Source: a virus
Taxonomy: Duplodnaviria; Heunggongvirae; Uroviricota; Caudoviricetes
Strand: one strand, 5' to 3'
Virus record (IMG/VR): IMGVR_UViG_3300028833_000001
Coordinates: 297,446 to 361,445 of that record
Length of the DNA stretch: 64,000 nt
Below are positions 9,901 through 51,586 of this stretch, in pieces. The notes below the pieces were generated by a model, which had not been told where the DNA came from, did no database searches, and worked only from the letters and a program-made list of their open reading frames with translations. The number at the start of each line of letters is the position of its first letter. Positions within the stretch are counted from its first letter, which is position 1. A program made the position numbers and the translations under genes.

Positions 9901-12900
9901 GGAAGAAACTTATGAGTCAAGATATCCAGACCCAGATGATTATGGTAAACCAGGGAAAAAACAATACAATCCAGAAGCGTTATATGAATTAACCAAATGG
10001 CTTGTATCGACCAGACATGAATCCGATAATATAAATTCAATCAATAGTTCTAATACCATAACAATTGACAGTTCTTTTGCTGAACGTATTAATGAGTACC
10101 AATATGGTTATACACCAGATACAGCTAGTAATTATATTTATGACAGTGGTACAATGCCAGATACCCCAGAAAACAGACAAAAGAAATTCAACACTGAAAA
10201 ATGGGAGCATTTTGACGTGTGGAAACTTGCTGGGTATTATATATTCTTAATGAGATATGGAGCTGTTGACCAATTTGTTAAAAATACAATGCTGTTTACT
10301 GATGGTAACGGAAAATATGATTTAAGAACTGATAAAAAATATAGGAAATGGTTCTTTATTAACTATGATAATGACTGTTTGTTTGGATTGAGGAATAACG
10401 GACAGTTAGCGTTTGATTGGACGCTTGATAGACAGACAATCGATTCCGCTTCTGATATAATAGTTGACGACCAGGCCGATAATGACGATTCTAATAATGC
10501 GTATGCTATGATGGGCCACGATTCTACATTGTGGAACAATCTTGAACGCGATGATGAATTTATGAGAATGGTTCGTGATTTGGATTACTCGATGAGTAAA
10601 TACAAATTAAATTACGATAACATGGTTACCGAATTTGATACCAACCAAACTGAACGTTGGTGTGAAAGAATTTACAATGCCAACGAAAAATACAAATATA
10701 TTAACTCAGCAAAGGGTATTGGTGATATGAGCGGAAGCCCAGTAAACAACTTGTGGATGCTACAGGGTACGAGAAGGTCACATAGACACTGGTGGATAGC
10801 TAACCATTTTAACTTACTTGATGCACGTTGGTTGTCAGGAGATTATAAAAATACTTATGTTGAGATTAAAACTAACTGTAAAGCTGGGACCGCGATACAT
10901 GCAGTCGCTTCAATGAAATATTATTACGCTTGGGGTCAACAAAAGAAAATATACGAAAGTAATATGGTGCGCAATGAGGGCGAACCAATCGATTTTATTT
11001 TCGATACAGACCAATCACAAGGCGACCCAGTATATATTTATGCGTTTAATAAGTTTTCTGAACTTGATTTTTCAGAAATTGCACCGTTAGCGTATGAGGG
11101 TTGTTTTAAGTTTGTTCTTGGCGACACATTAGTATCAAACAGCCTTAAAAAGTTAGTACTTGGTAATCCTTCTGTTGTTAATAATGCCGCCCAAGACACA
11201 ACGACTTGGATTAATTTACCTAATTTGGAATATCTCGATATAACTAATTGGGCAGGTATTACAAGCGTTCCGTTACATGCATTTAACAATTTAACAGTAT
11301 TTAAGGCTGGTGGGTCAAGAATTGGCTCATTTGAGCCTTCTGAAGGTTCTAATTTTTCACAGGTTGTATTGCCGACAACAATTAGACATATTAACTTAAA
11401 TAACGTTAAATTTGGTAATAATATGAACCAAAATTTGGAATATACACCAAATACTACGTTAGATAATTTAATTATAAGTAATAATGACGGTGTTGGGTTA
11501 AATTATTATAATAAATTAATATTGCCGTGGATTACCTCAATCGAAAATTCAGTGCAATCAGATTTATTGTATGCAAACAAAACATTATCAATTAACAATG
11601 TTGATTGGGTCTTTAATAATATGAACTCCGTTCGTATTTTTAAGAACTTCAAGACCAAAGGAATGTCGTTTAATATTACTGGTAGAATTGATTTAACTCG
11701 TTGCGGTAATTTATCAATGGAAAATATTGATGAGTTAAAGGAAATTTTTGGTGAAAATTGCTTCAACCCAGTAACCGCTAAACTATATGTACTTACTCCA
11801 GAGAGTATTTTTATTCAATCCGATTCTGACCATATGGTTGCTGGACAAACAGCAATATTTCGTAGGGAAATTTATCCAGACGAAACATCTGTTGACGGTA
11901 AATTGCAATCGTTAAGATTTTTATTGGTTAAGGAAACGGACCAGGATAAATCAGATAACCCAGAAGTTATTGAGGATAATGTAACACAAAAGAGATATTT
12001 GGAATTGACTCCAGATGAAATTGAGGCTAAAAGACATGGATTGACACTGGTTAACAATGCTTTGTTAGCTGATTATGCAACGTTGTATGTGCCAGAAGAG
12101 GTGACAGGAGTGGATACTGAGTGTCTTGTTATGGTATATATGGATTTAACTGGTGGCGGAGAAAAAATAGCTGTAATGAATTTCACGATTAAAGACCCTA
12201 CTTACGCCACAACAGCAACCATTAACGGACAAACATCACAATACCATAACACTGAGTACGTTTATAGTATAGATTTAAGAACGCCAAGCAATAACGTTCC
12301 TATTGGAAGTTATACTGTTGAGTGGAGCCTATCTGGTAACGGTGTACAATACGTAGAATCAAGCGGTATCATAGATGGTAATCAATTAAGGTACAGTATT
12401 GTAATTGGAAATGACCAGCCAGAGGTATCAGAAGAAATGGTTTTACTGGCAAAAGTGTATAACCATAATGGCACGCAAGTCACTAGAACTGTTGAAATTC
12501 TCGTACTAAATGAAGAAGTTATTATGACGTCGCAAAGCAACCAATTTGTTTTAAGTAGATTAAACGCAGCTGGTTGGACATCTGACCCTTATGCGACTGC
12601 AATGAAAAAACAAGAGGCAGAAGCTGTTACAGTCGAAATGTTTGCCAATGACATGCCGTTTTATCAACAGACGCCAGAAAATGGATTTTCTTTTACAGAA
12701 TTACAGTATTTTACTGGTTTAACTAAATTGCCAGATAACGCATTTGCTGGTTCTAATATAAAACATATATCATTGCCATTAACAATGACTGGGCTTGGCA
12801 TTTCTTGCTTTGAATCATGTTCAATGCTAACTGGAATAACAGAAAACGGTGTGGCTGAATATACTGAAAATGATATTCCGTTTAACGTAATCCATAGTGG

Positions 12901-42434: not shown

Positions 42435-42507
42435 GGTGCCGTTAGCTCAGTGGGTAGAGCGCATGTCTGTGGAACATGAGGCGTTGGTTCAAATCCAACA
42501 CGGCACC
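42435..42507 (+). tRNA. tRNA-His(GTG)
   Basis: Cloverleaf with G-1 and C73; CATGT-CTGTGGA-ACATG. Confidence 0.95.
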
Positions 42508-42566
42508 CGAAAAAAAAAGTTTGGAAGTTTAAAAAAAGATTTGTAATCTTACAAACACAAACGAGA

Positions 42567-42577
42567 GTTCTTTGAAA
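42567..42577 (+). promoter_or_regulatory. boxA-like antitermination site
   Basis: GTTCTTTGAAA shortly after a promoter-like TTTG..TAATCTTAC. Confidence 0.5.
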
Positions 42578-42589
42578 AAATTGAAATAT

Positions 42590-43036
42590 AAAGTGATTGT
42601 GAGAATGATAGCAAAACAACTATCATGCATAGGCGAGAAATCCCTATGTAGAATCTCCTAAATTCGGTAGAATCCTTAAAGGCGTTAGCCTTCGTAAGAG
42701 AGAAAATATGTAACCTCACTAAACAATAATGTGGAAGGACTAACCGAGCGAAAATGTAATGCGGAATTTCAATAAGTTAGGAAGATATTACATAATCGTG
42801 TAGAGGCCAAACGGGAGATACCTAAGTTGGAATTTGTATAATTGAGGGATAGCGCAAGCAAGTATGTTTTCTTTTAACAGTTAACAGAACAATCAAATTA
42901 TACATCTTGCAAGAATTCCAATATGGTAAGATGGTCCAGGCCACAACAACACTACAAGCAGTGTCGAAACCAGACATAAGTACTGTTGTAACAAAGTGTT
43001 GGCTATGATAACATAGTGTGGCATCACAATTACTTT
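42590..43036 (+). ncRNA. Group I intron-like structured RNA closed by a 13-bp terminal helix
   Basis: P3 ATCTCCT/GGGAGAT, P4 TTCGGT/ACCGAG, P7 GAGGCCA/TGGTCC, P8, P9. Ends AAAGTGATTGTGA/TCACAATTACTTT. Confidence 0.75.
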
Positions 43037-43041
43037 TACTT

Positions 43042-43114
43042 GCGCCCGTAACTCAGCTGGTAGAGTACATCCCTTTTAAGGATGGAGTCGTGGGTTCGAA
43101 TCCCACCGAGCGCA
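43042..43114 (+). tRNA. tRNA-Lys(TTT)
   Basis: Cloverleaf; CATCC-CTTTTAA-GGATG. Confidence 0.93.
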
Positions 43115-43141
43115 CAATAATAAATTTAAAATTATAATAAA

Positions 43142-43319
43142 ATGGAAGACGGGGCAAAAATTAAAAGAGTATCTTAAAAAAGAATTTGAATGGAATAATC
43201 ATAAGAAGTATAGGAAATATTTTGATGAATGGTATTCAAATTTAACAGAAAATCAAATACTATATTATAAAAGTTATTCTATTGGACAGAAATCACCATG
43301 GATTAAAATTGACAAATAA
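43142..43319 (+). pseudogene. Small ORF with apparent frameshift in an A-run
   Basis: The ATG frame stops after 11 codons. A shifted frame reads KLKEYLKKEFEWNNHKKYRKYFDEWY... to TAA. Confidence 0.35.
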
Positions 43320-43379
43320 AAAAAATGTAAGAAGATTTGGAAAATTTAAATTTAAATTGTATTCTTACATAGCGTTGAA

Positions 43380-43452
43380 CGGGTAGTGGCGCAGTTGGTA
43401 GCGCGCTTCATTTGGGATGAAGGGGTCGCAGGTTCGAGTCCTGTCTACCCGA
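43380..43452 (+). tRNA. tRNA-Pro(TGG)
   Basis: Cloverleaf; CTTCA-TTTGGGA-TGAAG. Confidence 0.95.
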
Positions 43453-43460
43453 CAAAAAAA

Positions 43461-43476
43461 GTTCTTTGACATATTG
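43461..43476 (+). promoter_or_regulatory. boxA-like antitermination site
   Basis: GTTCTTTGACATATTG, rrn-leader-like. Confidence 0.55.
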
Positions 43477-43574
43477 GAGAGAAGCTATTGAAATATATGT
43501 GGTAAAAACAATTTTTTGTTTTTAAAGCCAAATTATATCGTATAGTGGGCCTTTGTCTGCTGTACGATTTTTTC

Positions 43575-43664
43575 GGAGGGGTGGCCGAGTGGTTTAAGGC
43601 AGCGGTCTTGAAAACCGCCGAGGTGTAACAGCCTCCGTGGGTTCGAATCCCACCCCCTCCGCCA
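43575..43664 (+). tRNA. tRNA-Ser(TGA)
   Basis: Long variable arm, G73, encoded CCA. Confidence 0.95.
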
Positions 43665-43726
43665 TAATATAATGAAAACGTATATACATTTTGATTATCA
43701 CAAATATTTATTAATAAACCAATACT

Positions 43727-44443
43727 ATGAATCAGAAAAGAGAATACGTTAGAAAAAATTTGGATATAATAAACAAAATGATAGAAAACAAACGACCTAA
43801 GTTTGAAATAGCTAGGGTTTTGGGAGTTAAATATTCCACATTAGATAAATATTTAAAAGAATTTGGTATTGATTATAAAGGAAACCCAAATAGAAAGGGA
43901 ATTCCGCATATGGAAGGAAGAATGCTAATTGAAGAATATTTAAATGGAAATAGAAACATACAAGCATCTAAACTAAGACAAAAACTAATAGAAAATGGTT
44001 TAAAAGAAGAAAAATGTGAATGCTGTGGGTTAACTGAATGGATGGGTAAAAAAATTCCGTTAGAACTTCACCATAAAAATATGAACCATAACGATAATAG
44101 TTTAGACAATCTTCAAATACTTTGTTCTAATTGTCATTCTTTAGCACATGAATATAATAATACAAAAGGTAAACCAGAAAGTTCTATTGATACTATTTTA
44201 TTAAAAAAACGTGTTAAAGAGGTTGGTCATTGCAAACAGTGCGGAAAAGAATTAACAAATAGCCAGAAAATTTATTGTTCACAAGAGTGCGCTCATTTAA
44301 ATGTTAGTAAAATACCACAAAAAAACGAATTAATTGATAAATTAAATGAGTTTAACTGGAATAAAACAAAAACTGGTAAGTATTTTGGCGTAAGTGATAA
44401 CGCAATTCGTAAATGGATTAAAAAGTACGACATAAAAAAATAA
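43727..44443 (+). CDS. HNH endonuclease with HTH and Zn-ribbon modules
   Basis: CECCG..LELHHKNMNHNDNSLDNLQILCSNCH, with N- and C-terminal HTH. Confidence 0.9.
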   Translation: MNQKREYVRKNLDIINKMIENKRPKFEIARVLGVKYSTLDKYLKEFGIDYKGNPNRKGIPHMEGRMLIEEYLNGNRNIQASKLRQKLIENGLKEEKCECCGLTEWMGKKIPLELHHKNMNHNDNSLDNLQILCSNCHSLAHEYNNTKGKPESSIDTILLKKRVKEVGHCKQCGKELTNSQKIYCSQECAHLNVSKIPQKNELIDKLNEFNWNKTKTGKYFGVSDNAIRKWIKKYDIKK

Positions 44444-44444
44444 T

Positions 44445-44521
44445 ACCGCTGTGGGCAAATTGGTAAAGTCGGCTATTTTAGGGGTAGCGTCATATTGTCG
44501 GTTCGACTCCGACCAGCGGTA
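44445..44521 (+). tRNA. tRNA-Leu(TAG), short variable region
   Basis: GCTAT-TTTAGGG-GTAGC; 8-nt variable region. Confidence 0.8.
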
Positions 44522-44534
44522 CAATAAATAATTT

Positions 44535-44618
44535 GGCTCTGTGGTGGAATTGGTAGACACGACAGACTTAAAATCTGTTGTCCGAAAGGACGTGTGGGTT
44601 CGAGTCCCATTGGAGCCA
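44535..44618 (+). tRNA. tRNA-Leu(TAA)
   Basis: Cloverleaf with variable arm. Confidence 0.95.
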
Positions 44619-44623
44619 CATAA

Positions 44624-44769
44624 GCTCCTATAGTTCAATGGACAGAACAGAAGTTTCCTATACAAGAGTAAACTTGTTTAAATCATTTCTATGTGAAATT
44701 GGTTTTATTGGGTTCGAGTCCCACACATAGAACAAACTTCAAATCTTGGTTCGAATCCAAGTAGGAGTA
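44624..44769 (+). tRNA. tRNA-Arg(CCT) interrupted by a 74-nt insertion (44660-44733)
   Basis: Removing the insert gives GAAGT-TTCCTAA-ACTTC with normal D, T and acceptor arms. Confidence 0.85.
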
Positions 44770-44788
44770 CTAAACACATAACATATAT

Positions 44789-44873
44789 GGGAGTGCGGTC
44801 ACGATGGTGGAGTGGCGGCGGTCTGTAAAACCGTTACAACGAAACACAGTAGGTTCGAATCCTACCACTCCCA
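44789..44873 (+). tRNA. tRNA-Tyr(GTA), atypical D and variable arms
   Basis: GCGGT-CTGTAAA-ACCGT. Confidence 0.85.
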
Positions 44874-44892
44874 CGAAACAGCGAACATGCAC

Positions 44893-45030
44893 AAGCGCAA
44901 ACTGAAGGGGAATTGGTAAACCCTCGCCCCTAGATAACATCAGAGCAGGGAGGTTTGGTGAGGCAACCGTAAAAGTAATCCAGCATGTGTAGCAAGATGG
45001 AAGTTCTGGTTCGAGTCCAGATGAGCGCTT
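44893..45030 (+). ncRNA. tRNA-shell RNA (D and T arms, ~80-nt non-tRNA middle)
   Basis: AAGCGC/GCGCTT, GGG-GAATTGGTAAA-CCC, TCTGG-TTCGAGT-CCAGA. Confidence 0.55.
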
Positions 45031-45040
45031 ATTTTATGAT

Positions 45041-45114
45041 GGGCCCATAGTGATAGTTGGTTAGCACGGGAGCTTTGCAAGCTCTTAGCCTGGGTTCGAG
45101 TCCCAGTGGGTCCA
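45041..45114 (+). tRNA. tRNA-Ala(TGC)
   Basis: G3-U70 pair, cloverleaf. Confidence 0.93.
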
Positions 45115-45120
45115 CAAATT

Positions 45121-45293
45121 AAAAACAAACAAGGAGAGTGGGCTCGGTGATAAAAAACCTTGTATGAAATGGGTTACAGGGGAAAACCGAAAAATAATGT
45201 CCTGCAAAGGATATTCACACGTAGGCTGGTTAATTATCGTGGCCAGGGCCTTTGCTATCAGGTGACTACGCAAATCCTGATGTGTTTGTTTTT
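45121..45293 (+). ncRNA. Unidentified multi-junction structured RNA
   Basis: 11-bp closing stem plus at least 7 nested helices. Confidence 0.6.
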
Positions 45294-45331
45294 TTTGGTT
45301 CTATGGCTGAACTAGTAGACGCGACAGAGTC

Positions 45332-45387
45332 ATCAAGGCAAAAGAACGGTTCGACTCCTTAGTGTAACGGTAGCACATTGTCTTGAT
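45332..45387 (+). ncRNA. Permuted tRNA-elbow mimic (T loop before D arm)
   Basis: ATCAAGGCAA/TTGTCTTGAT encloses GG-TTCGACT-CC and then GTG-TAACGGTAG-CAC. Confidence 0.45.
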
Positions 45388-45395
45388 TTTCTCAC

Positions 45396-45483
45396 GGAGG
45401 GTTACCCAAGCTGGTGAAGGGGACGGTTTGCTAAACCGTTAGGTCACGAAAGTGGCGCGAGAGTTCGAGCCTCTCACCCTCCG
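45396..45483 (+). tRNA. tRNA-Ser(GCT)
   Basis: Long variable arm, G73. Confidence 0.95.
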
Positions 45484-45502
45484 CAAACAAATTTGGCTTT
45501 AT

Positions 45503-45607
45503 AATACACATAAAGGACACACTCGCCAATACCAATTGGCAAGCGAGAGAAGTTAGCGCAGGACGGAATTGAGGCCGTAAGTGTGATAGTGAAATGTAAA
45601 GTGTATT
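45503..45607 (+). ncRNA. Unidentified structured RNA
   Basis: AATACAC/GTGTATT closing stem; CACAC(T)/(A)GTGTG; CTCGC/GCGAG; ACGG/CCGT. Confidence 0.4.
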
Positions 45608-45615
45608 TTTTGATA

Positions 45616-45689
45616 AATGCTGTGATGGTGTAATAGGAAGCATCACCAGAATATCTGGAGGTACAGGTTCAAGTCCGAAACACAGCATT
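45616..45689 (+). ncRNA. tRNA-like RNA lacking an anticodon loop
   Basis: 9-bp AATGCTGTG/CACAGCATT, D arm, CCAGA-ATA-TCTGG, T loop. Confidence 0.55.
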
Positions 45690-45702
45690 GTTTTTAATAT
45701 AT

Positions 45703-45817
45703 GTGTTGATGGCGCAATGGTAGACGCACACATGCACGTGGTTCGCGGTTCGAGTCCGCAAGTAGTTGGGCACAACGAAAAAATGGTAGAATGATGGTTC
45801 GAATCCATCTCAACACA
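45703..45817 (+). ncRNA. tRNA-shell RNA with a second internal T-loop hairpin
   Basis: GTGTTGA/TCAACAC, D arm, internal GCGG-TTCGAGT-CCGC, terminal GATGG-TTCGAAT-CCATC. Confidence 0.6.
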
Positions 45818-45824
45818 CAATAAA

Positions 45825-46003
45825 TCCCCTATTAGTTCAATTGGCAGAACGTAGTTATATCAATTCTTTGACGAAAGAATAAATTGTATAACTAAGGTTG
45901 TAATTATTTTGTGAAGTAGTGACTTGTTGACAATGGGTGCGCAACAGAATCAAAGATTAGAGCTGTGAATCATTTTAACGGGGTTCGAATCCAACATAGG
46001 GGA
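45825..46003 (+). ncRNA. tRNA-shell RNA with extended anticodon arm and ~80-nt insert before the T loop
   Basis: TCCCCTAT/ATAGGGGA, GTTC-AATTGGCA-GAAC, TAGTTATA/TATAACTA, GG-TTCGAAT-CC. Confidence 0.55.
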
Positions 46004-46016
46004 CAGGTATAAGTAT

Positions 46017-46086
46017 CGGGATGTAGTTTAATGTTAAAATAATTGTGCTTAGGACAGTGATATAGGTGCGAATCCTATCATCTCGG
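46017..46086 (+). pseudogene. Degenerate duplicate of the adjacent interrupted tRNA-Pro
   Basis: Shares its 5' end, T arm and trailer CAAATATTTCATAT with 46120-46252. Lacks G18G19, U33 and the TTC T-loop. Confidence 0.65.
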
Positions 46087-46119
46087 CAAATATTTCATAT
46101 AGTATAAACATAATAGCAT

Positions 46120-46252
46120 CGGGATGTAGTTTAATTTGGTAAAATGCGTTAATTTTTTCGTGTTTTGTTCTTTAAAAACACAGACAGCAACTTTTCTTTA
46201 AAATTATTGTTTTGGGGAAACCGTGTTATAGGTTCGAATCCTATCATCCCGA
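46120..46252 (+). tRNA. tRNA-Pro(GGG) interrupted at 28/29 by a 60-nt insertion (46149-46208)
   Basis: Removing the insert gives CGGTT-TTGGGGA-AACCG. C1-G72 and A73 give Pro identity. Confidence 0.75.
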
Positions 46253-46266
46253 CAAATATTTCATAT

Positions 46267-46340
46267 GGGCCATCAGTCCAGTTGGAGTGGATGCCACCCT
46301 GTCACGGTGGAGAACGCGGGTTCGAGTCCCGCATGGCCCG
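46267..46340 (+). tRNA. tRNA-Asp(GTC)
   Basis: Cloverleaf, G73. Confidence 0.93.
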
Positions 46341-46350
46341 CTTTATAAGC

Positions 46351-46464
46351 AACATTCCCAGTGAAAAAGGGTTAGTAGTAGCGTTGTACAGCCAGTAACC
46401 CTGAGATAGTATCAAAATCAACGGTTAGACGTAGATGAACTGTAAGTACAACTTTGGGAATGTT
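46351..46464 (+). ncRNA. Unidentified pseudoknotted RNA
   Basis: AACATTCCCA/TGGGAATGTT; AGGGTTA/TAACCCT; loop GTTGTAC pairs with downstream GTACAAC. Confidence 0.6.
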
Positions 46465-46478
46465 TGTAATAATAAAAT

Positions 46479-46552
46479 AGCGGATTAGCTCAGTTGGTTA
46501 GAGCAGTACTCTTATAAAGTAAAGGTCCCCAGTTCAAGCCTGGGATTCGCTA
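46479..46552 (+). tRNA. tRNA-Ile(TAT)
   Basis: (G)TACT-CTTATAA-AGTA(A); otherwise canonical. Confidence 0.85.
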
Positions 46553-46562
46553 CAATCAATAG

Positions 46563-46743
46563 TGCGGGATGGAGCAGAGGTCAGCTCGTCAGGCTCAATA
46601 CAGAGTGGTTTTCTGAAAAAAACTGTTGATGCCAATTGTTCAAGAGAAGAGCCGATACACAATCAAATTGTGTGTCGAGGCTGGTTCGAGTCCAGCTGGC
46701 GTCGCTAACCTGAAGGTCGGGGGTTCGAATCCCTCTCCCGCTA
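46563..46743 (+). tRNA. Initiator tRNA-fMet(CAT) interrupted inside the anticodon by a 108-nt insertion (46598-46705)
   Basis: 1:72 mismatch and A11-U24. Removing the insert gives TCAGG-CTCATAA-CCTGA. Confidence 0.88.
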
Positions 46744-46938
46744 CAAATCCAGGTGCATAACGATTTGAAACCGTAGTGGGTGTTAAAACCACAGCCTGGA
46801 ATAATAAGATTGCAGCAATACTAGTCAGGCTGGTCTTTCCGTGAAAGTCGGACGTATTACCATGCAACGATAGCGTTGATACCTGTATAATGGCAGGTGT
46901 AGCAAATGGCCCGTCAGGTCGCTACTGACGGTTTTTAT

Positions 46939-47015
46939 GGGGCTGTAGCTCAGTTGGAAGAGCGCTGGACTGAAAATCCAGGACGTTAGCGGTGGTTCGA
47001 TTCCACCCAGCCCCG
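46939..47015 (+). tRNA. tRNA-Phe(GAA), 9-nt variable region, G73
   Basis: CTGGA-CTGAAAA-TCCAG. Confidence 0.85.
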
Positions 47016-47123
47016 CGTGAAAGGATGTAGTGTTCTTTGCCGTGTTTCAACAAAGTGCATCAACCAGCCTTTTGGATGTGGCGCCCAAGTCCATGAAAGG
47101 AGGACAAAATGAAAGCGGAGTAT

Positions 47124-47198
47124 GGGCTCGTAGCTCAGTCTGGTAGAGCATCTGATTTGCAATCAGAGGGTCATTGGTTCAAATCCCATCGTGGTCCA
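47124..47198 (+). tRNA. Second tRNA-Ala(TGC), imperfect acceptor and T stems (possibly decaying)
   Basis: TCTGA-TTTGCAA-TCAGA; extra base in the 3' acceptor strand. Confidence 0.7.
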
Positions 47199-47253
47199 CA
47201 AGCGATATCCGAATCAGTGAAATTATCGTTCAATGAGTTGAAAGAAGATATCA

Positions 47254-47326
47254 AGTGTTTAGTATATCGGAAGTACGTTACCAAGAACGAGTTGGTAAAA
47301 GTGTGAGTTCGAATCCCACAACACTA
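47254..47326 (+). ncRNA. Atypical tRNA-like RNA (7-bp anticodon stem, purine-rich loop)
   Basis: AGTGTT/AACACT, GTAT/GTAC, TTACCAA-GAACGAG-TTGGTAA, TTCGAAT loop. Confidence 0.55.
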
Positions 47327-47333
47327 TAATAAT

Positions 47334-47404
47334 AGGTTCCTAGTTCAATGGTAGAATAATGGTCTCCAAAACCATAGATTGAGGTTCGAGTCCTTGGGTT
47401 CCTG
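47334..47404 (+). tRNA. tRNA-Trp(CCA)
   Basis: ATGGT-CTCCAAA-ACCAT; two T:T mismatches in the acceptor stem. Confidence 0.85.
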
Positions 47405-47413
47405 CAATAAAAT

Positions 47414-47496
47414 AGCCAAGTGGCGGAATGGTAGACGCGAAGGTCTCAAAAACCTTTGGGGTAACCCCCGTGCGGGTTCAAGTCCCGCCTTGGCTA
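47414..47496 (+). tRNA. tRNA-Leu(CAA)
   Basis: Cloverleaf with variable arm. Confidence 0.93.
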
Positions 47497-47511
47497 CTGA
47501 TAGAAAAATAA

Positions 47512-47581
47512 AGGATACATACAGCAAACCTTTTTTTTAAGCATCAAACTTTTAATTTGAAAACGCTAAGAAAGTATCCTG
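47512..47581 (+). ncRNA. Free-standing ACAGCAA module presenting a Lys(TTT)-like anticodon stem-loop
   Basis: AGGATAC/GTATCCT, ACAGCAA at 47521, TCAAA-CTTTTAA-TTTGA. Confidence 0.65.
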
Positions 47582-47587
47582 TTTTAA

Positions 47588-47660
47588 CGCCCTATCGACA
47601 AGTGGTTTAAGTCATCACCCTTTCACGGTGGAGTCACGGGTTCGAATCCCGTTGGGGCGA
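47588..47660 (+). tRNA. tRNA-Glu(TTC)
   Basis: TCACC-CTTTCAC-GGTGG. Confidence 0.93.
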
Positions 47661-47679
47661 CAATAAAAAAAAATCAAAA

Positions 47680-48222
47680 ATGGAACAAGACGAATTGAAT
47701 CACAACAGGCGTGTTTTCGCAAATATTAACAAATTAGATATTGAAGATGTCCATCCAATCCCAAAGGTCGAATTAGTTGTTGGGAAAACATATAAAGGCA
47801 ATTGTAGGAATTCAGATAATGCGGTTTGGGATGGAAAAGTATTTTGGTACGACAGGCACAAGTTTGGTAGTACATTTAGGGAAAGTATAAATCACTACGA
47901 AGATGATGATGGTTACGATGTTTTTGTCCCATTTGAAACAGATGAATCGTTTATTGTTCTTCCAGAAGATTCGGTTAAGAAACTTTCTGATAGAGATTAT
48001 TGGGGTACTATTGAGAAAATATTTATGGAAATTACCAATTTGATGACGGAAAAAGCATTTATTAATGAAGCTAAACATATGTACCCAAATATGTCAGATG
48101 AAGACATTAGAAAACAATTGAAAAACATGCTTTACGATAATTATGGAAATATTGTAAGAGGTGCTGATATGTTTGATTTTAGTGGTAAGTTAAAAGGTGA
48201 ACCAGGAACTCCTGGAAAATAA
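47680..48222 (+). CDS. Hypothetical protein within the tRNA array
   Basis: 180 aa, codon style matches the other genes. Confidence 0.7.
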   Translation: MEQDELNHNRRVFANINKLDIEDVHPIPKVELVVGKTYKGNCRNSDNAVWDGKVFWYDRHKFGSTFRESINHYEDDDGYDVFVPFETDESFIVLPEDSVKKLSDRDYWGTIEKIFMEITNLMTEKAFINEAKHMYPNMSDEDIRKQLKNMLYDNYGNIVRGADMFDFSGKLKGEPGTPGK

Positions 48223-48237
48223 TAAAACAAAAAAAAC

Positions 48238-48310
48238 GCCGATGTAGCTCAATTGGCAGAGCGTTACACTTGTAATGTAAATATTGTAGGTTCGATTCCT
48301 ATCATCGGCT
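48238..48310 (+). tRNA. tRNA-Thr(TGT)
   Basis: TTACA-CTTGTAA-TGTAA. Confidence 0.93.
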
Positions 48311-48378
48311 CTTAAAATAAAATTTATCCCGAAACGTGTTTTTAGCTTTTTATGACTATTTATAAAAAAAATAGTAAT

Positions 48379-49083
48379 ATGAATAATTTTGAAAATTGCA
48401 AATCGTTAAATGACATTGCTAGGCAAGAATTTGGAAAAGCAAACTATACTAATCGTGAGAAAGCTAAAAAACTATTATTTGAACACGGAATAGATTGGTT
48501 AGATTGGCTAGAATCTATTAAAATTTCTAATAAAAAGTTTTGTCTTGTTTGTGGTAAAGAATTAAGAAATGGTCAAACAAAATTTTGCAGCCATTCATGT
48601 TCTGCTGGATATAACAATAAGTTTCGAAAAACATATAAAGATAATGAAAGCCGAGAACATCATGAAAAAATTACCAAAAGTGACAAATTCTGTTTGTATT
48701 GTGGCGCAAAATTAACAAATCAACAAAAATTATTTTGTAATAATAAATGTCAACAAGATTTCAAGTATAAAGAATATATAGACCGATGGATAAATGGTGA
48801 TGAAAATGGTTTAAAGGGCCAGTATTCTTTATCAAGGCACATCAGGCGATTTTTATTGGAAAAAACAAATTGTAAATGTGAAAAATGTGGCTGGGGAGAA
48901 AAAAATCCATATACAAACACAATCCCATTAGAAATACATCATATTGATGGTGATTATACAAATAACAAGGAAGAGAATCTTCAGGTTTTGTGTCCAAATT
49001 GTCATTCTTTAACAGAAACACACAAATCACATAATAAGAACGGAAGACAAGGTAGAAGAAAATATTATAAAAAAACAGAATAA
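48379..49083 (+). CDS. HNH endonuclease with two CxxC..FCxxxC Zn modules
   Basis: CEKCG..LEIHHIDGDYTNNKEENLQVLCPNCH. Start placed at MNNFE after ACTATTTAT (48355-48363). Confidence 0.9.
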   Translation: MNNFENCKSLNDIARQEFGKANYTNREKAKKLLFEHGIDWLDWLESIKISNKKFCLVCGKELRNGQTKFCSHSCSAGYNNKFRKTYKDNESREHHEKITKSDKFCLYCGAKLTNQQKLFCNNKCQQDFKYKEYIDRWINGDENGLKGQYSLSRHIRRFLLEKTNCKCEKCGWGEKNPYTNTIPLEIHHIDGDYTNNKEENLQVLCPNCHSLTETHKSHNKNGRQGRRKYYKKTE

Positions 49084-49217
49084 GCTAAAGCTCTTTACCG
49101 ATACGTAGCGGTAAATGGTGCGTACCCAGGGTCAGACGCACGGTTGTATTCTGTACCTATATATGGATGATGTACAGCTTTTATGTGTAGGTTAAACAAA
49201 TATGGCCCGACCAATAA

Positions 49218-49350
49218 TATCTTAATGCTGAGCGTGAATGAAGAAAACGGAAACCAAAGGCAACATAGCTGTAGCAGAATTTGATTGCAATGGATAACAG
49301 TGAAACACGCAAGATTCAGTAGATAATGCTTTGACGGTTGCATTAAGGTA
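49218..49350 (+). ncRNA. Unidentified helix-closed RNA
   Basis: TATCTTAATGC/GCATTAAGGTA; inner CTGAG/TTCAG and GCGTG/CACGC. Confidence 0.5.
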
Positions 49351-49354
49351 GCAA

Positions 49355-49423
49355 GTGGAGTAGCTTTATAAGGATGAGCCTTGGATTTTACCAAGAGGTG
49401 GTAGTTCGAATCTGCCCTCCACA
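49355..49423 (+). ncRNA. tRNA-like RNA with a 6-nt anticodon loop
   Basis: GTGGAG/CTCCAC, GCTT/GAGC, CTTGG-ATTTTA-CCAAG, GGTAG-TTCGAAT-CTGCC. Confidence 0.6.
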
Positions 49424-49642
49424 ACAAAAGCAAACGAAACCAGTTGACCAGATGGGATAAAACGCATAGTCATCCGTGATGCCACTGCGGATTAATAAAT
49501 AGATGGCTAAGACGGAGGTAACGTTACCGTTTAAACAACTATATTTTTAATGCTGACAGAGCGGGCGTGGAAAGTTCTTGAAATGTTAATATAAAACTGC
49601 CAGAATCGCAAAATTGTACGGGTTTGCACGTGCAAAACTTTT

Positions 49643-49714
49643 GGGGAGGTAGCTCAACGGTAGAGCAACTGGCTGTTAACCAGTAGGTTGTGGGTTCGAA
49701 ACCCACCCTCCCCG
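49643..49714 (+). tRNA. tRNA-Asn(GTT)
   Basis: ACTGG-CTGTTAA-CCAGT, G73. Confidence 0.92.
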
Positions 49715-49719
49715 CGAAT

Positions 49720-50132
49720 ATACCAATTAACAGTAGGCTTGAAAGCAGCCATCTGATAATGAGTTGCGAGAGGAAGTTTGCGTGGAAGTCATGACTCCGC
49801 AAAATAACAAGGCGCATGTGAGTAACTTGGCAATAAGCATGTGAGAAACACCTCAGGAATAGCGAACGTGGAAATCCCCGATGCAAAGAAAGGAACACAG
49901 TTGAAATACTGTGCGAGGTTCCAGTAGCGTGACGGTGCATCGAAGCTATGTAGCTAAGTTTTATGTAAGCCCCAACAGTACGAGAGGAACCTGGGGTCAA
50001 TGGGTGCCATGAATTTGGTTTCTATGCCGTAAGTGAGTCGGTAAAGAACGCGAGAAGTATCAAGTGAAGACTCGCGCCCAAAAGCATAAAACAGTCCTTA
50101 GAGCATTTGGCGTGGCAGCACATAATTGGTAT
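49720..50132 (+). ncRNA. Large ornate RNA with a 23S H43/H44 mimic (GOLLD-like candidate)
   Basis: ATACCAATTA/TAATTGGTAT ends; AGTAGGCTTGAAAGCAGCCATC; GGCGTGGCAGCAC; many internal helices. Confidence 0.7.
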
Positions 50133-50135
50133 TAT

Positions 50136-50207
50136 GCGGGTATAGCACAACGGTTAGTGTGCCAGCTTGCCATGCTGGAAATGTCAGTTCGATTCTGATT
50201 ACCCGCT
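50136..50207 (+). tRNA. tRNA-Gly(GCC)
   Basis: CCAGC-TTGCCAT-GCTGG, U73. Confidence 0.93.
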
Positions 50208-50212
50208 CATAT

Positions 50213-50286
50213 GGCGGCATAGCGGAGTTGGTTTCATGCGCCGCTCTCATAAGGCGGAGACGGTGGTTCGAATCCACCTGCCGCCA
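50213..50286 (+). tRNA. tRNA-Met(CAT), elongator type
   Basis: G1-C72 paired; CCGCT-CTCATAA-GGCGG. Ile2 is not strictly excluded. Confidence 0.85.
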
Positions 50287-50287
50287 C

Positions 50288-50512
50288 AAGTCAAGAACAG
50301 ACCACCGAGTAGTGTTCGGGGTAAATTGAATGGGGATGTATACTTAACCAGTCAATGTAGTCTTGGGTGGTGTGACCCTCAGCCCGATGAAAAGTGTCAG
50401 TTATCGTGAGGTACTGTAGCGCAACGCAACAGGAGGTAAAACCCTATGTGGTAACGCAATCCTCGTCTAGCCGAGGTTTCTCCAGTCCGTAGCTCGTAAA
50501 TTTTCTTGACTT
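50288..50512 (+). ncRNA. Unidentified ~225-nt structured RNA
   Basis: AAGTCAAGAA/TTCTTGACTT perfect closing stem; CGAGT/GCTCG, TGGGGA/TCTCCA, CCTCG/CGAGG. Confidence 0.6.
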
Positions 50513-50521
50513 ATTTTTTTT

Positions 50522-50640
50522 CGGGGAGTAGCTCAGTTGGTTAGAGCGCGTAATGTAGATTCTTGTAAAAGAATCAAACAGCAATGTTTACGAATGTCAT
50601 TTGAAGACCGTGGTCGTGGGTTCGAGTCCCACCTCCCCAG
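50522..50640 (+). tRNA. tRNA-Gln(TTG) interrupted at 28/29 by a 45-nt insertion (50551-50595)
   Basis: Removing the insert gives CGGTC-ATTTGAA-GACCG; weak 1:72 pair, G73. Confidence 0.8.
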
Positions 50641-50648
50641 CAAATTAT

Positions 50649-50803
50649 ATTTGGCTAATTTGAGGTTCAAGAAGGCCCCCGTAAGATGGACAATCGTGGG
50701 GGCAATGCTTGAGATGGATACTGTGAAGGGACAGCCATAAGTCATGAAGTACAGTTAGATGTGGGGTCTGGTGGAATGACAGACTGTGTAGGATTAACCA
50801 AAT
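50649..50803 (+). ncRNA. Unidentified ~155-nt structured RNA
   Basis: ATTTGGCTAATTT/GGATTAACCAAAT; TCAAG/CTTGA; GCCCCC/GGGGGC; GGTCTG/CAGACT. Confidence 0.55.
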
Positions 50804-50807
50804 TTAT

Positions 50808-50878
50808 TGAGCCATCGTCTAACGGCAAGACACCAGATTTTGGTTCTGGGAATCGAGGTTCGAATCCTCGTGGCTCAA
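50808..50878 (+). tRNA. tRNA-Gln(TTG)
   Basis: U1-A72; CCAGA-TTTTGGT-TCTGG. Confidence 0.93.
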
Positions 50879-50885
50879 CAAACAA

Positions 50886-50958
50886 CTTCCCATAGTTCAA
50901 TGGATTAGAACGTGAGTCCACGAAACTCAAGATTGGGGTTCGAGTCCCTGTGGGGAGA
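50886..50958 (+). tRNA. tRNA-Arg(ACG) with C33
   Basis: TGAGT-CCACGAA-ACTCA, A20. Confidence 0.85.
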
Positions 50959-50996
50959 CTTAATACATATATCGAAATAGTTTCAATCCAGAATAT

Positions 50997-51071
50997 GCGT
51001 CTGTAGCTCAGTTTGGTTAGAGCACTACACTGATAATGTAGGGGTCGCTGGTTCAAGTCCAGCCAGACGCA
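50997..51071 (+). tRNA. tRNA-Ile(GAT)
   Basis: CTACA-CTGATAA-TGTAG. Confidence 0.95.
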
Positions 51072-51104
51072 CTTGAGTTGATGCTAACATGGCACAACTA
51101 TTAT

Positions 51105-51180
51105 GCGGGTGTAGCTCAGTTGGTTCAGTAGCGCTTGCCTTACAAGCAAGAGGTCGTAGGTTCGACTCCTACCATCCGCA
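51105..51180 (+). tRNA. tRNA-Val(TAC)
   Basis: CTTGC-CTTACAA-GCAAG. Confidence 0.92.
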
Positions 51181-51190
51181 CATTTATTAT

Positions 51191-51265
51191 GCTCCAGTAG
51201 CTCAATGGATGAGCGGCACCCTTCTAAGGTGCGGGTTGTAGGTTCGAGTCCTACCTGGAGTACCA
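51191..51265 (+). tRNA. tRNA-Arg(TCT)
   Basis: GCACC-CTTCTAA-GGTGC, encoded CCA. Confidence 0.95.
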
Positions 51266-51340
51266 TATATAGATAGGGCCGAATTGGTGATGGAATGCCA
51301 AAGTTAAATAAGCTTTGGTAAGTAAAGAAATGTTATCATT

Positions 51341-51586
51341 ATGAGTGAATTTGGAGAATTTAAAAGAAATAATTATTTGGTCAATCATCCGTATGGTAAT
51401 CCATATGAGAATAAAGCATTTGTGCTTACTGCGGAGCAACAAAAAGAGCTTGAACGCAAAGTGGATTTAGAATGGACATTGTATTATTTGAAGAAAGCAA
51501 TTAGATTGTTTGGTGATATTAAAATCAGTGATGCAATTGCCAAAACAAAACACGAACTTGAGCCTAAAATCAATTTTAAGCATTAA
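51341..51586 (+). CDS. Hypothetical protein
   Basis: 81-aa ORF after the array. Confidence 0.6.
   Translation: MSEFGEFKRNNYLVNHPYGNPYENKAFVLTAEQQKELERKVDLEWTLYYLKKAIRLFGDIKISDAIAKTKHELEPKINFKH

Follow-up and report, generated by a model that had tools for sequence, protein, structure and literature searches.

How does a phage come by its initiator tRNA when the gene for that tRNA carries 108 extra nucleotides within the anticodon? The question is raised by a locus in the final 64 kb of a 361,445-bp phage contig (GC content about 33%, long open reading frames in the standard code), and this stretch of 64,000 nucleotides is called the window in what follows, with positions counted from its first letter. 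The window includes a tRNA array at about 42.4-51.3 kb (42436-51265), in which the first-pass annotation, made from the sequence alone, had described a split initiator tRNA gene with an insert at 46598-46705 and exon ends CUCA and UAA; the sequence reads exactly so. The 108-nt insert divides the CAU anticodon between bases 35 and 36, leaving CA on one side and U on the other, and is flanked by two exons.

46563..46597, + strand: 5' exon of an initiator-type tRNA, 35 nt, comprising the acceptor 5' strand, the D arm with A11:U24, the anticodon-stem 5' strand and loop bases 32-35 (CUCA)
46706..46743, + strand: 3' exon, 38 nt, comprising U36, A37 and A38, the anticodon-stem 3' strand, the variable loop, the T arm, the acceptor 3' strand and the discriminator A

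Identity of the interrupted tRNA

The discriminator of the initiator tRNA is followed by C-A-A, and CCA is not encoded. With introns allowed, ARAGORN reported here a tRNA of 74 nt interrupted by 108 nt, but placed the intron 1 nt out of register and called the anticodon as CCT. The correct anticodon of the split tRNA is CAT, because the joined exons form a clean cloverleaf with a U1.U72 mismatch and A11:U24, because a related 373-kb phage (G001) has a similar initiator gene with CAU entirely inside the 5' exon, and because uninterrupted homologues in seven metagenome contigs (L168-L174), identical in the D arm and the anticodon stem, read CUCAUAA across the junction. The exons had also been credited with keeping the identity elements of fMet tRNA, and this holds for the CAU anticodon, the U1.U72 mismatch and A11:U24, all of which are present once the exons are joined, but not for the anticodon stem, which has two G-C pairs (30:40 and 31:39) where the bacterial initiator canon has three; the uninterrupted homologues have this same stem.

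The sole other CAU tRNA in the 361-kb genome (50213-50287) has a paired G1-C72 end, so the split gene is the only initiator-type tRNA of the genome, which extends to all 361 kb what had been claimed for the window. As the insert lies in the one initiator tRNA that this jumbo phage has, the tRNA that reads start codons would depend on removal of the insert. The locus also bears on annotation practice, as bacterial-mode tRNA finders miss such genes or misassign the anticodon, ARAGORN's CCT in place of CAT being a case in point.

Several other features lie in this array or in those of other phages. At 46017-46087, ARAGORN reports a tRNA with the anticodon UUA, which would read UAA, and the phage open reading frames are open in the standard code. 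A paralogue of this UUA-anticodon tRNA (46120-46252) has a different kind of insert, one of a second family of short inserts with (A/G)CAGCAA that is found in further tRNA genes, both in the window (50522-50640) and in G001 (L006:10399-10519 and 10713-10843). Two free-standing HNH endonuclease genes (43727-44443 and 48352-49083) are located within the array, and a permuted tmRNA (Rfam RF04321, 62 bits) sits inside a phage tRNA array in G002 (L002:5522-5756).

Fold of the insert and its relatives

Minimum free energy (MFE) folding, together with a comparison across related introns, divides the insert into the parts listed here.

46598..46600, + strand: J1, three unpaired bases (AUA) at the intron start; most family members start N-U-A
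46601..46615, + strand: P1, a hairpin of 5 bp (46601-46605 with 46611-46615) and a 5-nt loop, taken from the MFE fold and aligned to the family P1 by covariance model R1
46616..46626, + strand: A-rich unpaired linker of 11 nt, from the MFE fold; 8-17 nt in other members where P1 and P2 are both predicted
46627..46704, + strand: tRNA-like domain, from the MFE fold, family comparison and covariation
46627-46634 with 46697-46704, + strand: P2, an acceptor-like helix of 8 bp whose first pair is U.G
46638-46652, + strand: D-like hairpin of the tRNA mimic
46653-46677, + strand: long arm of the mimic
46680-46696, + strand: T arm of the mimic, with the loop UUCGAGU; P2 and the T stem make 13 stacked bp (8+5)
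46705, + strand: single unpaired C, the final intron base; C in 16 of 16 tabulated members and in a member found later

This fold has an MFE of -36.7 kcal/mol (z = -4.07) that none of 200 shuffles reached, and the opposite strand is unremarkable (z = -1.5), so that the small 5' hairpin, cloverleaf mimic and single C described at first reading are borne out. So is the statement that the insert fits neither group I or II introns nor the bulge-helix-bulge type. When the Rfam 15 covariance models were run against positions 44400-51400 with E values up to 1, the insert matched no family, and group I (RF00028), group II, hammerhead, twister, pistol, hatchet, hairpin and HDV/theta models had no match anywhere in that interval. 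A hammerhead-type core sought by eye in the insert was not found; inspection of the splice sites revealed no bulge-helix-bulge that could form around them without destroying the anticodon stem; and a search of the phage genome for an archaeal-type splicing endonuclease (EndA, PF01974) gave none.

The insert belongs, with very little room for doubt, to a family of small, tRNA-shaped, Lak-type introns in the anticodon loops of large-phage tRNAs. The arrangement as such is not new: introns of this kind have been on record for Lak phages since 2019, as a family of 70-140-nt tRNA inserts that are neither group I nor group II and that came without a mechanism. A covariance model, which the first-pass annotation had proposed as a check, was built from aligned introns (n = 12) of other phages, among them the tRNA-Gly and tRNA-Pro introns of Lak phages, with the present genome (G000) left out. 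This model, R1, recovers the initiator insert, matched end to end at 46589-46713 (33.7 bits, E 3.8e-4), and matches end to end a second intron at 44650-44740 (53.4 bits, E 2.9e-8); a third match in the window, at 44351-44528 (E 0.01), overlaps an ordinary tRNA-Leu. The second intron interrupts another gene of the same array.

44624..44769, + strand: tRNA-Arg(CCU) with a 74-nt intron (44660-44733) made up of AUA, P1, linker, a 9+4 bp stack and C; second family member in the array

About 17 members were gathered. Besides the two in the present genome, they are found in tRNA-fMet and tRNA-Thr of G001, tRNA-fMet and tRNA-Asn of G003, tRNA-Thr, tRNA-Asn, tRNA-Lys and tRNA-Tyr of G005, tRNA-fMet of G006 (at the same 35/36 site as here), tRNA-Gly and tRNA-Pro of the Lak records G004 and G007, tRNA-Asn and tRNA-Phe of contig L087, and tRNA-Lys of contig L173. 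Pattern searches were less productive. An exact 27-nt pattern from the 5' exon had no match in the viral contig collection; an initiator tRNA followed by N-TAC returned mostly ordinary tRNAs with a CAUUAC loop, together with three distinct real introns (four matches, two of them on one contig); a pattern of P1 plus linker recovered the Lak tRNA-Gly alone; and a pattern of two T loops 18-40 nt apart gave, among the matches listed, mainly tRNAs with a duplicated 3' fragment and other tRNA-like RNAs.

Folded member by member, the introns largely share one layout of J1, P1, A-rich linker, P2 on a T arm, and a final C. J1 is 1-3 nt long and mostly N-U-A, and P1 has 3-6 bp and a loop that is often of the type A-R-U-A-A-A, a common and not a universal feature, the loop here being UGGUU. 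Between P2 and the T arm lies variable material, often with a D-loop-like GG. The linkers of the G001 introns, of the tRNA-Arg intron in the present genome and of a Lak tRNA-Phe intron often read like U-A-U-A-A-A-U or U-U-A-A-A-U and resemble T4-type late promoter boxes.

The most regular element is the tRNA-like arm. P2 and the T stem together come to exactly 13 bp in each of the ten members with a mismatch-free stack, split as 8+5, 9+4 or 7+6; every position is paired in all ten, 12 of the 13 with several pair types, and the pair that closes the T loop is always G-C. Beyond the stack comes one unpaired C and then the 3' splice site. Alignment A1 of the introns has 87% of its cells paired, compared with 59% for shuffled versions (none of 500 reaches the observed value) and 29-42% when the partner columns are slid, and 19 of the 21 pairs have compensatory changes. 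Two members have no T loop (G003 tRNA-Asn and G001 tRNA-Thr), and the first of these is predicted to fold as a 13-bp hairpin with a GUGA cap, followed by AC.

The position of the intron in the tRNA differs between members (33/34, 35/36 or 36/37) and its 5' border lies about 3 nt before P1 in most of them, and the splice sites are therefore set by the intron and not by the tRNA. When each tabulated member, across 8 tRNA species, is trimmed by a single excision rule, from the base before U-A through the C, what remains has a 7-nt anticodon loop with U33 and a plausible anticodon, and hand parsing of a tRNA-Tyr member found later gave the same outcome.

Possible routes of insert removal

Taken together, we consider it quite likely from the sequence comparisons that the insert is removed from the RNA. 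The layout of tRNA 3' ends in this phage bears directly on how the 3' cut might be made. None of the 26 tRNA 3' ends tabulated for this genome showed an encoded CCA. In 24 of 27 tRNA genes the discriminator is followed by C and then mostly by AA or UA, and nine further phage arrays (among L006, L007, L159-L165, L173, L174 and L087) likewise have C after the discriminator in 79-100% of genes. A tRNA gene of this phage thus runs from 12 bp through N73 and C to an A/U-rich trailer, and the intron from 13 bp through C to an exon that starts AA or UAA, with the C located 14 nt past the T loop and followed by A/U in both cases. The 3' splice site therefore copies the phage's own tRNA 3'-end layout, which is the best support for a tRNA 3'-processing nuclease making the 3' cut, and a cut of this type is probably what takes place there. 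As regards the tRNA genes themselves, the C after the discriminator may mark the 3'-processing site, or C74 may be kept and only C75 and A76 added.

The first-pass annotation had placed the 3' splice site at a tRNA 3'-processing-type site and had proposed that the mimic recruits a tRNA nuclease for its own excision. The geometry of 13 bp and a C agrees with the 3' half of this proposal, but the 5' cut is not explained by it and the phage has no RNase Z-like gene. A fuller nuclease-plus-ligase route, to which we would give a little under an even chance for the initiator insert, can be outlined as follows. In the pre-tRNA, the anticodon stem, P1 and the tRNA-like arm would most likely meet in a three-way junction, with both splice sites within 1-3 nt of it. 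A nuclease of the tRNA 3'-end-processing type would make the 3' cut, taking the 13-bp stack and C as the end of a tRNA and the exon as its trailer, and the intron would also determine the position of the 5' cut, which in most members falls about 3 nt before P1 and would be the work of some further enzyme. The exons, held together by the tRNA body, would then be sealed by an ATP-dependent RNA ligase, for example the DRB0094-type enzyme of the phage.

Two enzyme genes of interest here are present in the genome.

G000:C1:7011-7583, - strand, outside the window: DRB0094-type ATP-dependent RNA ligase
G000: CCA-adding-type nucleotidyltransferase

The genome-wide search for RNA ligases and endonucleases that had been suggested at first reading thus yields the DRB0094-type ligase, but no RtcB, no member of the metallo-beta-lactamase RNase Z family and, as noted above, no archaeal-type endonuclease; the Bacteroides thetaiotaomicron control genome has RtcB. 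A T4 Rnl1-type ligase likewise had no match in the phage genome, in a search that matched no control genome either, so that absence is not implied. With no RNase Z-like gene in the phage, a host enzyme would be needed for the 3' cut. Cuts of the RNase P or RNase Z type leave a 3'-OH and a 5'-phosphate, ends that DRB0094-like ligases seal directly. PF09414 ligases were found in all four of the other intron-bearing phage records searched, and lie beside or inside the tRNA array in G001 and G005. Large phages commonly encode RNA ligases for the repair of tRNA, and the presence of such enzymes here is for that reason weak evidence.

Two gene neighbourhoods in these related phages may be recorded here. 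Just upstream of the tRNA array of G001 (L176:710-6307), a calcineurin-type phosphoesterase, a LAGLIDADG gene and a small RNA ligase are clustered and could constitute an RNA end-healing and sealing set. In the array of G005 (L164:5138-7090), the gene for a 223-aa RNA ligase directly adjoins a TnpB (IS605 OrfB / Cas12f-like) gene. This TnpB gene and the TAC motif had suggested a DNA element of the IS200/IS605 type, an idea that was rejected, as no target sequence is common to the flanks and it is the anticodon loop that fixes the boundaries.

Several observations count against the nuclease-plus-ligase route. The 5' splice site is located some 30 nt upstream of the mimic and 3 nt before P1. Because the mimic has its RNase P site elsewhere, enzymes that trim tRNA ends cannot by themselves produce both cuts. 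RNase P was accordingly rejected as the 5' nuclease, since it would be expected to cut where P2 begins, about 30 nt beyond the 5' splice site, and a model with trimming enzymes only has no account of the 5' cut, of P1 or of the linker. In a canonical tRNA the first unpaired base comes after 12 bp and not after 13. In addition, an enzyme that binds the tRNA elbow might reject an arm with a GNRA-type tetraloop in place of a T loop (two members have no T loop), and a GNRA-type cap fits a role in RNA tertiary contacts equally well. The more general proposal is one that we put forward tentatively, and with greater reserve than the route itself: the inserts may represent a third mode of tRNA splicing, which in bacteria and their viruses would be the first to depend on proteins, and in which end-trimming nucleases would cut at the borders of the mimic, 13 bp and one base from the T loop, and a phage ligase would reseal the exons, a system through which the phage could gate its only initiator tRNA.

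The same conserved parts can be read as those of a small ribozyme, which we regard as unlikely. The junction, with U-A of J1, the A-rich linker and the terminal C, would then cleave one or both sites, the tRNA-like arm would act as a fixed-length strut, and the exons would be joined by reversal of the cleavage, by RtcB, or by end healing and a ligase. Such a reading would account for the conserved unpaired bases, which are found exactly at the junction that bears both splice sites, for a 5' cut that is defined by the intron and falls at 33/34, 35/36 or 36/37 in different members, and for the exchange of the T-loop cap for GUGA on the predicted 13-bp helix of the G003 tRNA-Asn intron, a swap typical of RNA tertiary modules. 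It could also draw on the G001 calcineurin-type phosphoesterase near the ligase by the tRNA array, which could heal cyclic-phosphate ends, and on RtcB as encoded by B. thetaiotaomicron. The invariant bases are, however, very few for a catalytic core, and neither P1 nor the linker is constant in length or sequence, the P1 loop here departing from the usual A-R-U-A-A-A. The phage itself is without RtcB, no Rfam ribozyme matched at E up to 1, and Devoto et al. 2019 (PMC6784885) had no Rfam match for most Lak introns and a tRNA match for one.

It is quite improbable that the insert is never spliced, being instead selfish mobile DNA or part of a rebuilt RNA, with the tRNA dead or turned to another role, in which RNase P and a 3' nuclease might release the mimic as a decoy or regulator, or tRNA halves might be formed. 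Mobility is indeed suggested by homing-type HNH genes inside the arrays, by intron presence or absence that differs among Lak strains (Devoto 2019, PMC6784885), and by a near-identical intron in genes with more diverged exons, since the G001 and G003 initiator genes differ at 2 of 80 nt in the intron and at 7 of 73 nt in the exons. Better conservation of the intron than of the exons fits strong constraint or recent transfer. The exon changes themselves argue the other way. Six of the nine sites that differ between these two genes make up three compensatory pairs in the exons (T stem and acceptor stem), two are pair-preserving changes in P2 of the intron, and the remaining one is position 72, which is the pattern predicted for a working tRNA with a constrained intron helix. 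Neutral drift of the exons, which had been raised at first reading as a point to look for, is therefore not what the comparison reveals: the changes are compensatory and a perfect cloverleaf is kept. An unspliced insert is also hard to square with its position in the phage's only initiator-type tRNA and with the one excision rule that restores a proper loop and anticodon in every tabulated member and in the later tRNA-Tyr.

An assembly chimera or sequencing artefact, the other concern raised in that annotation, has a negligible probability, as three assemblies made independently from different samples (contigs L003, L004 and L005) carry the DNA with 100% identity over 1.5-8 kb and structured homologues occur in many other phages. 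The phage is present in samples JGI 3300024342 and 3300035054, SRR10838750, SRR9006729 and ENA ERZ27257202.

Of the readings set out above, the nuclease-plus-ligase route is thus the one we prefer. Testable predictions for the enzymes involved follow from the constant 13-bp length of the arm, from the terminal C and from a splice site that resembles a tRNA 3' end.

Comparison with known systems

Introns in bacterial and phage tRNAs are thought to be self-splicing ribozymes of group I or, rarely, group II. Group I introns, known from tRNA-Leu(UAA), tRNA-fMet, tRNA-Ile(CAU) and tRNA-Arg(CCU), resemble the present insert in that they occupy the same kind of site, partly in the same tRNAs, are mobile and vary in their presence. 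They differ in having 200 nt or more, a P3-P9 core, a 3'-terminal G and a U before the 5' splice site, whereas the insert has 108 nt and ends in C, and its 5' exon ends in A. Group II introns, with six domains including domain V and several hundred nucleotides, are likewise unlike this 108-nt insert without an Rfam match. Inserts of 255-257 nt, likely of group I size, interrupt tRNA-Leu(UAA) in G001 (L006:8493-8833) and a CAU tRNA in a Lak phage (L159:7735-8064), and classical introns and mini-introns therefore coexist in the same arrays.

The bulge-helix-bulge introns of archaea and eukaryotes, which are processed by EndA/Sen and by RtcB/Trl1, are similarly short, lie in the anticodon loop and need an RNA ligase, and in both cases removal is probably protein-dependent. 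The insert differs from them in the absence of the motif, with its two 3-nt bulges 4 bp apart that bear the splice sites, in a site other than 37/38 and in the absence of an EndA-family gene. In eukaryal tRNA introns the ruler is measured from the body of the tRNA, whereas here it would run from the intron's own tRNA-like arm. The use of an embedded tRNA mimic to recruit end-processing nucleases, which then cut a longer RNA at the borders of the mimic, has precedents in MALAT1-mascRNA, in the t-elements of plant mitochondria and in mitochondrial tRNA punctuation. To our knowledge, these systems create ends without ligation of exons, and none of them operates inside a tRNA anticodon loop.

The closest counterparts are the introns of Lak megaphages, whose tRNAs were described by Devoto et al. 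2019 (Nat Microbiol, PMC6784885) as holding 'enigmatic', highly conserved introns, mostly without an Rfam match, of which the one in tRNA-Thr(UGU) 'may itself encode a tRNA'. Neither a consensus structure nor a mechanism was given there (Fig. 4 and Table S6), our search of the literature, including later papers that cite the Lak introns, found no mechanism and no published demonstration of splicing, and a paper on the 360-402-kb 'Jug' gut phages does not mention tRNAs. The phages themselves differ, Lak phages having genomes of about 540 kb with 26% GC and code 15, as against 361 kb, about 33% GC and the standard code here. The introns differ as well: the Lak site is 36/37 and the present one 35/36 in an initiator tRNA, the P1 loop here is not of the A-R-U-A-A-A type, and the mimic has in addition a complete D-like hairpin and a long arm. 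Yet the Lak intron sequences in Table S6 (PMC6784885) show the same layout as the insert, an anticodon-loop insert of 68-141 nt with N-U-A, a hairpin, an A-rich linker, an acceptor-like helix on a T arm, a final C and no Rfam match. Under the family rule, the gene listed for Lak phage A1 as 'tRNA-Tyr (GTA)' (Table S6, PMC6784885) becomes CUGU + UAA, that is Asn(GUU), with a short variable loop, and a near-identical intron in contig L087 (L087:3311-3468) is embedded in a typical tRNA-Asn body.
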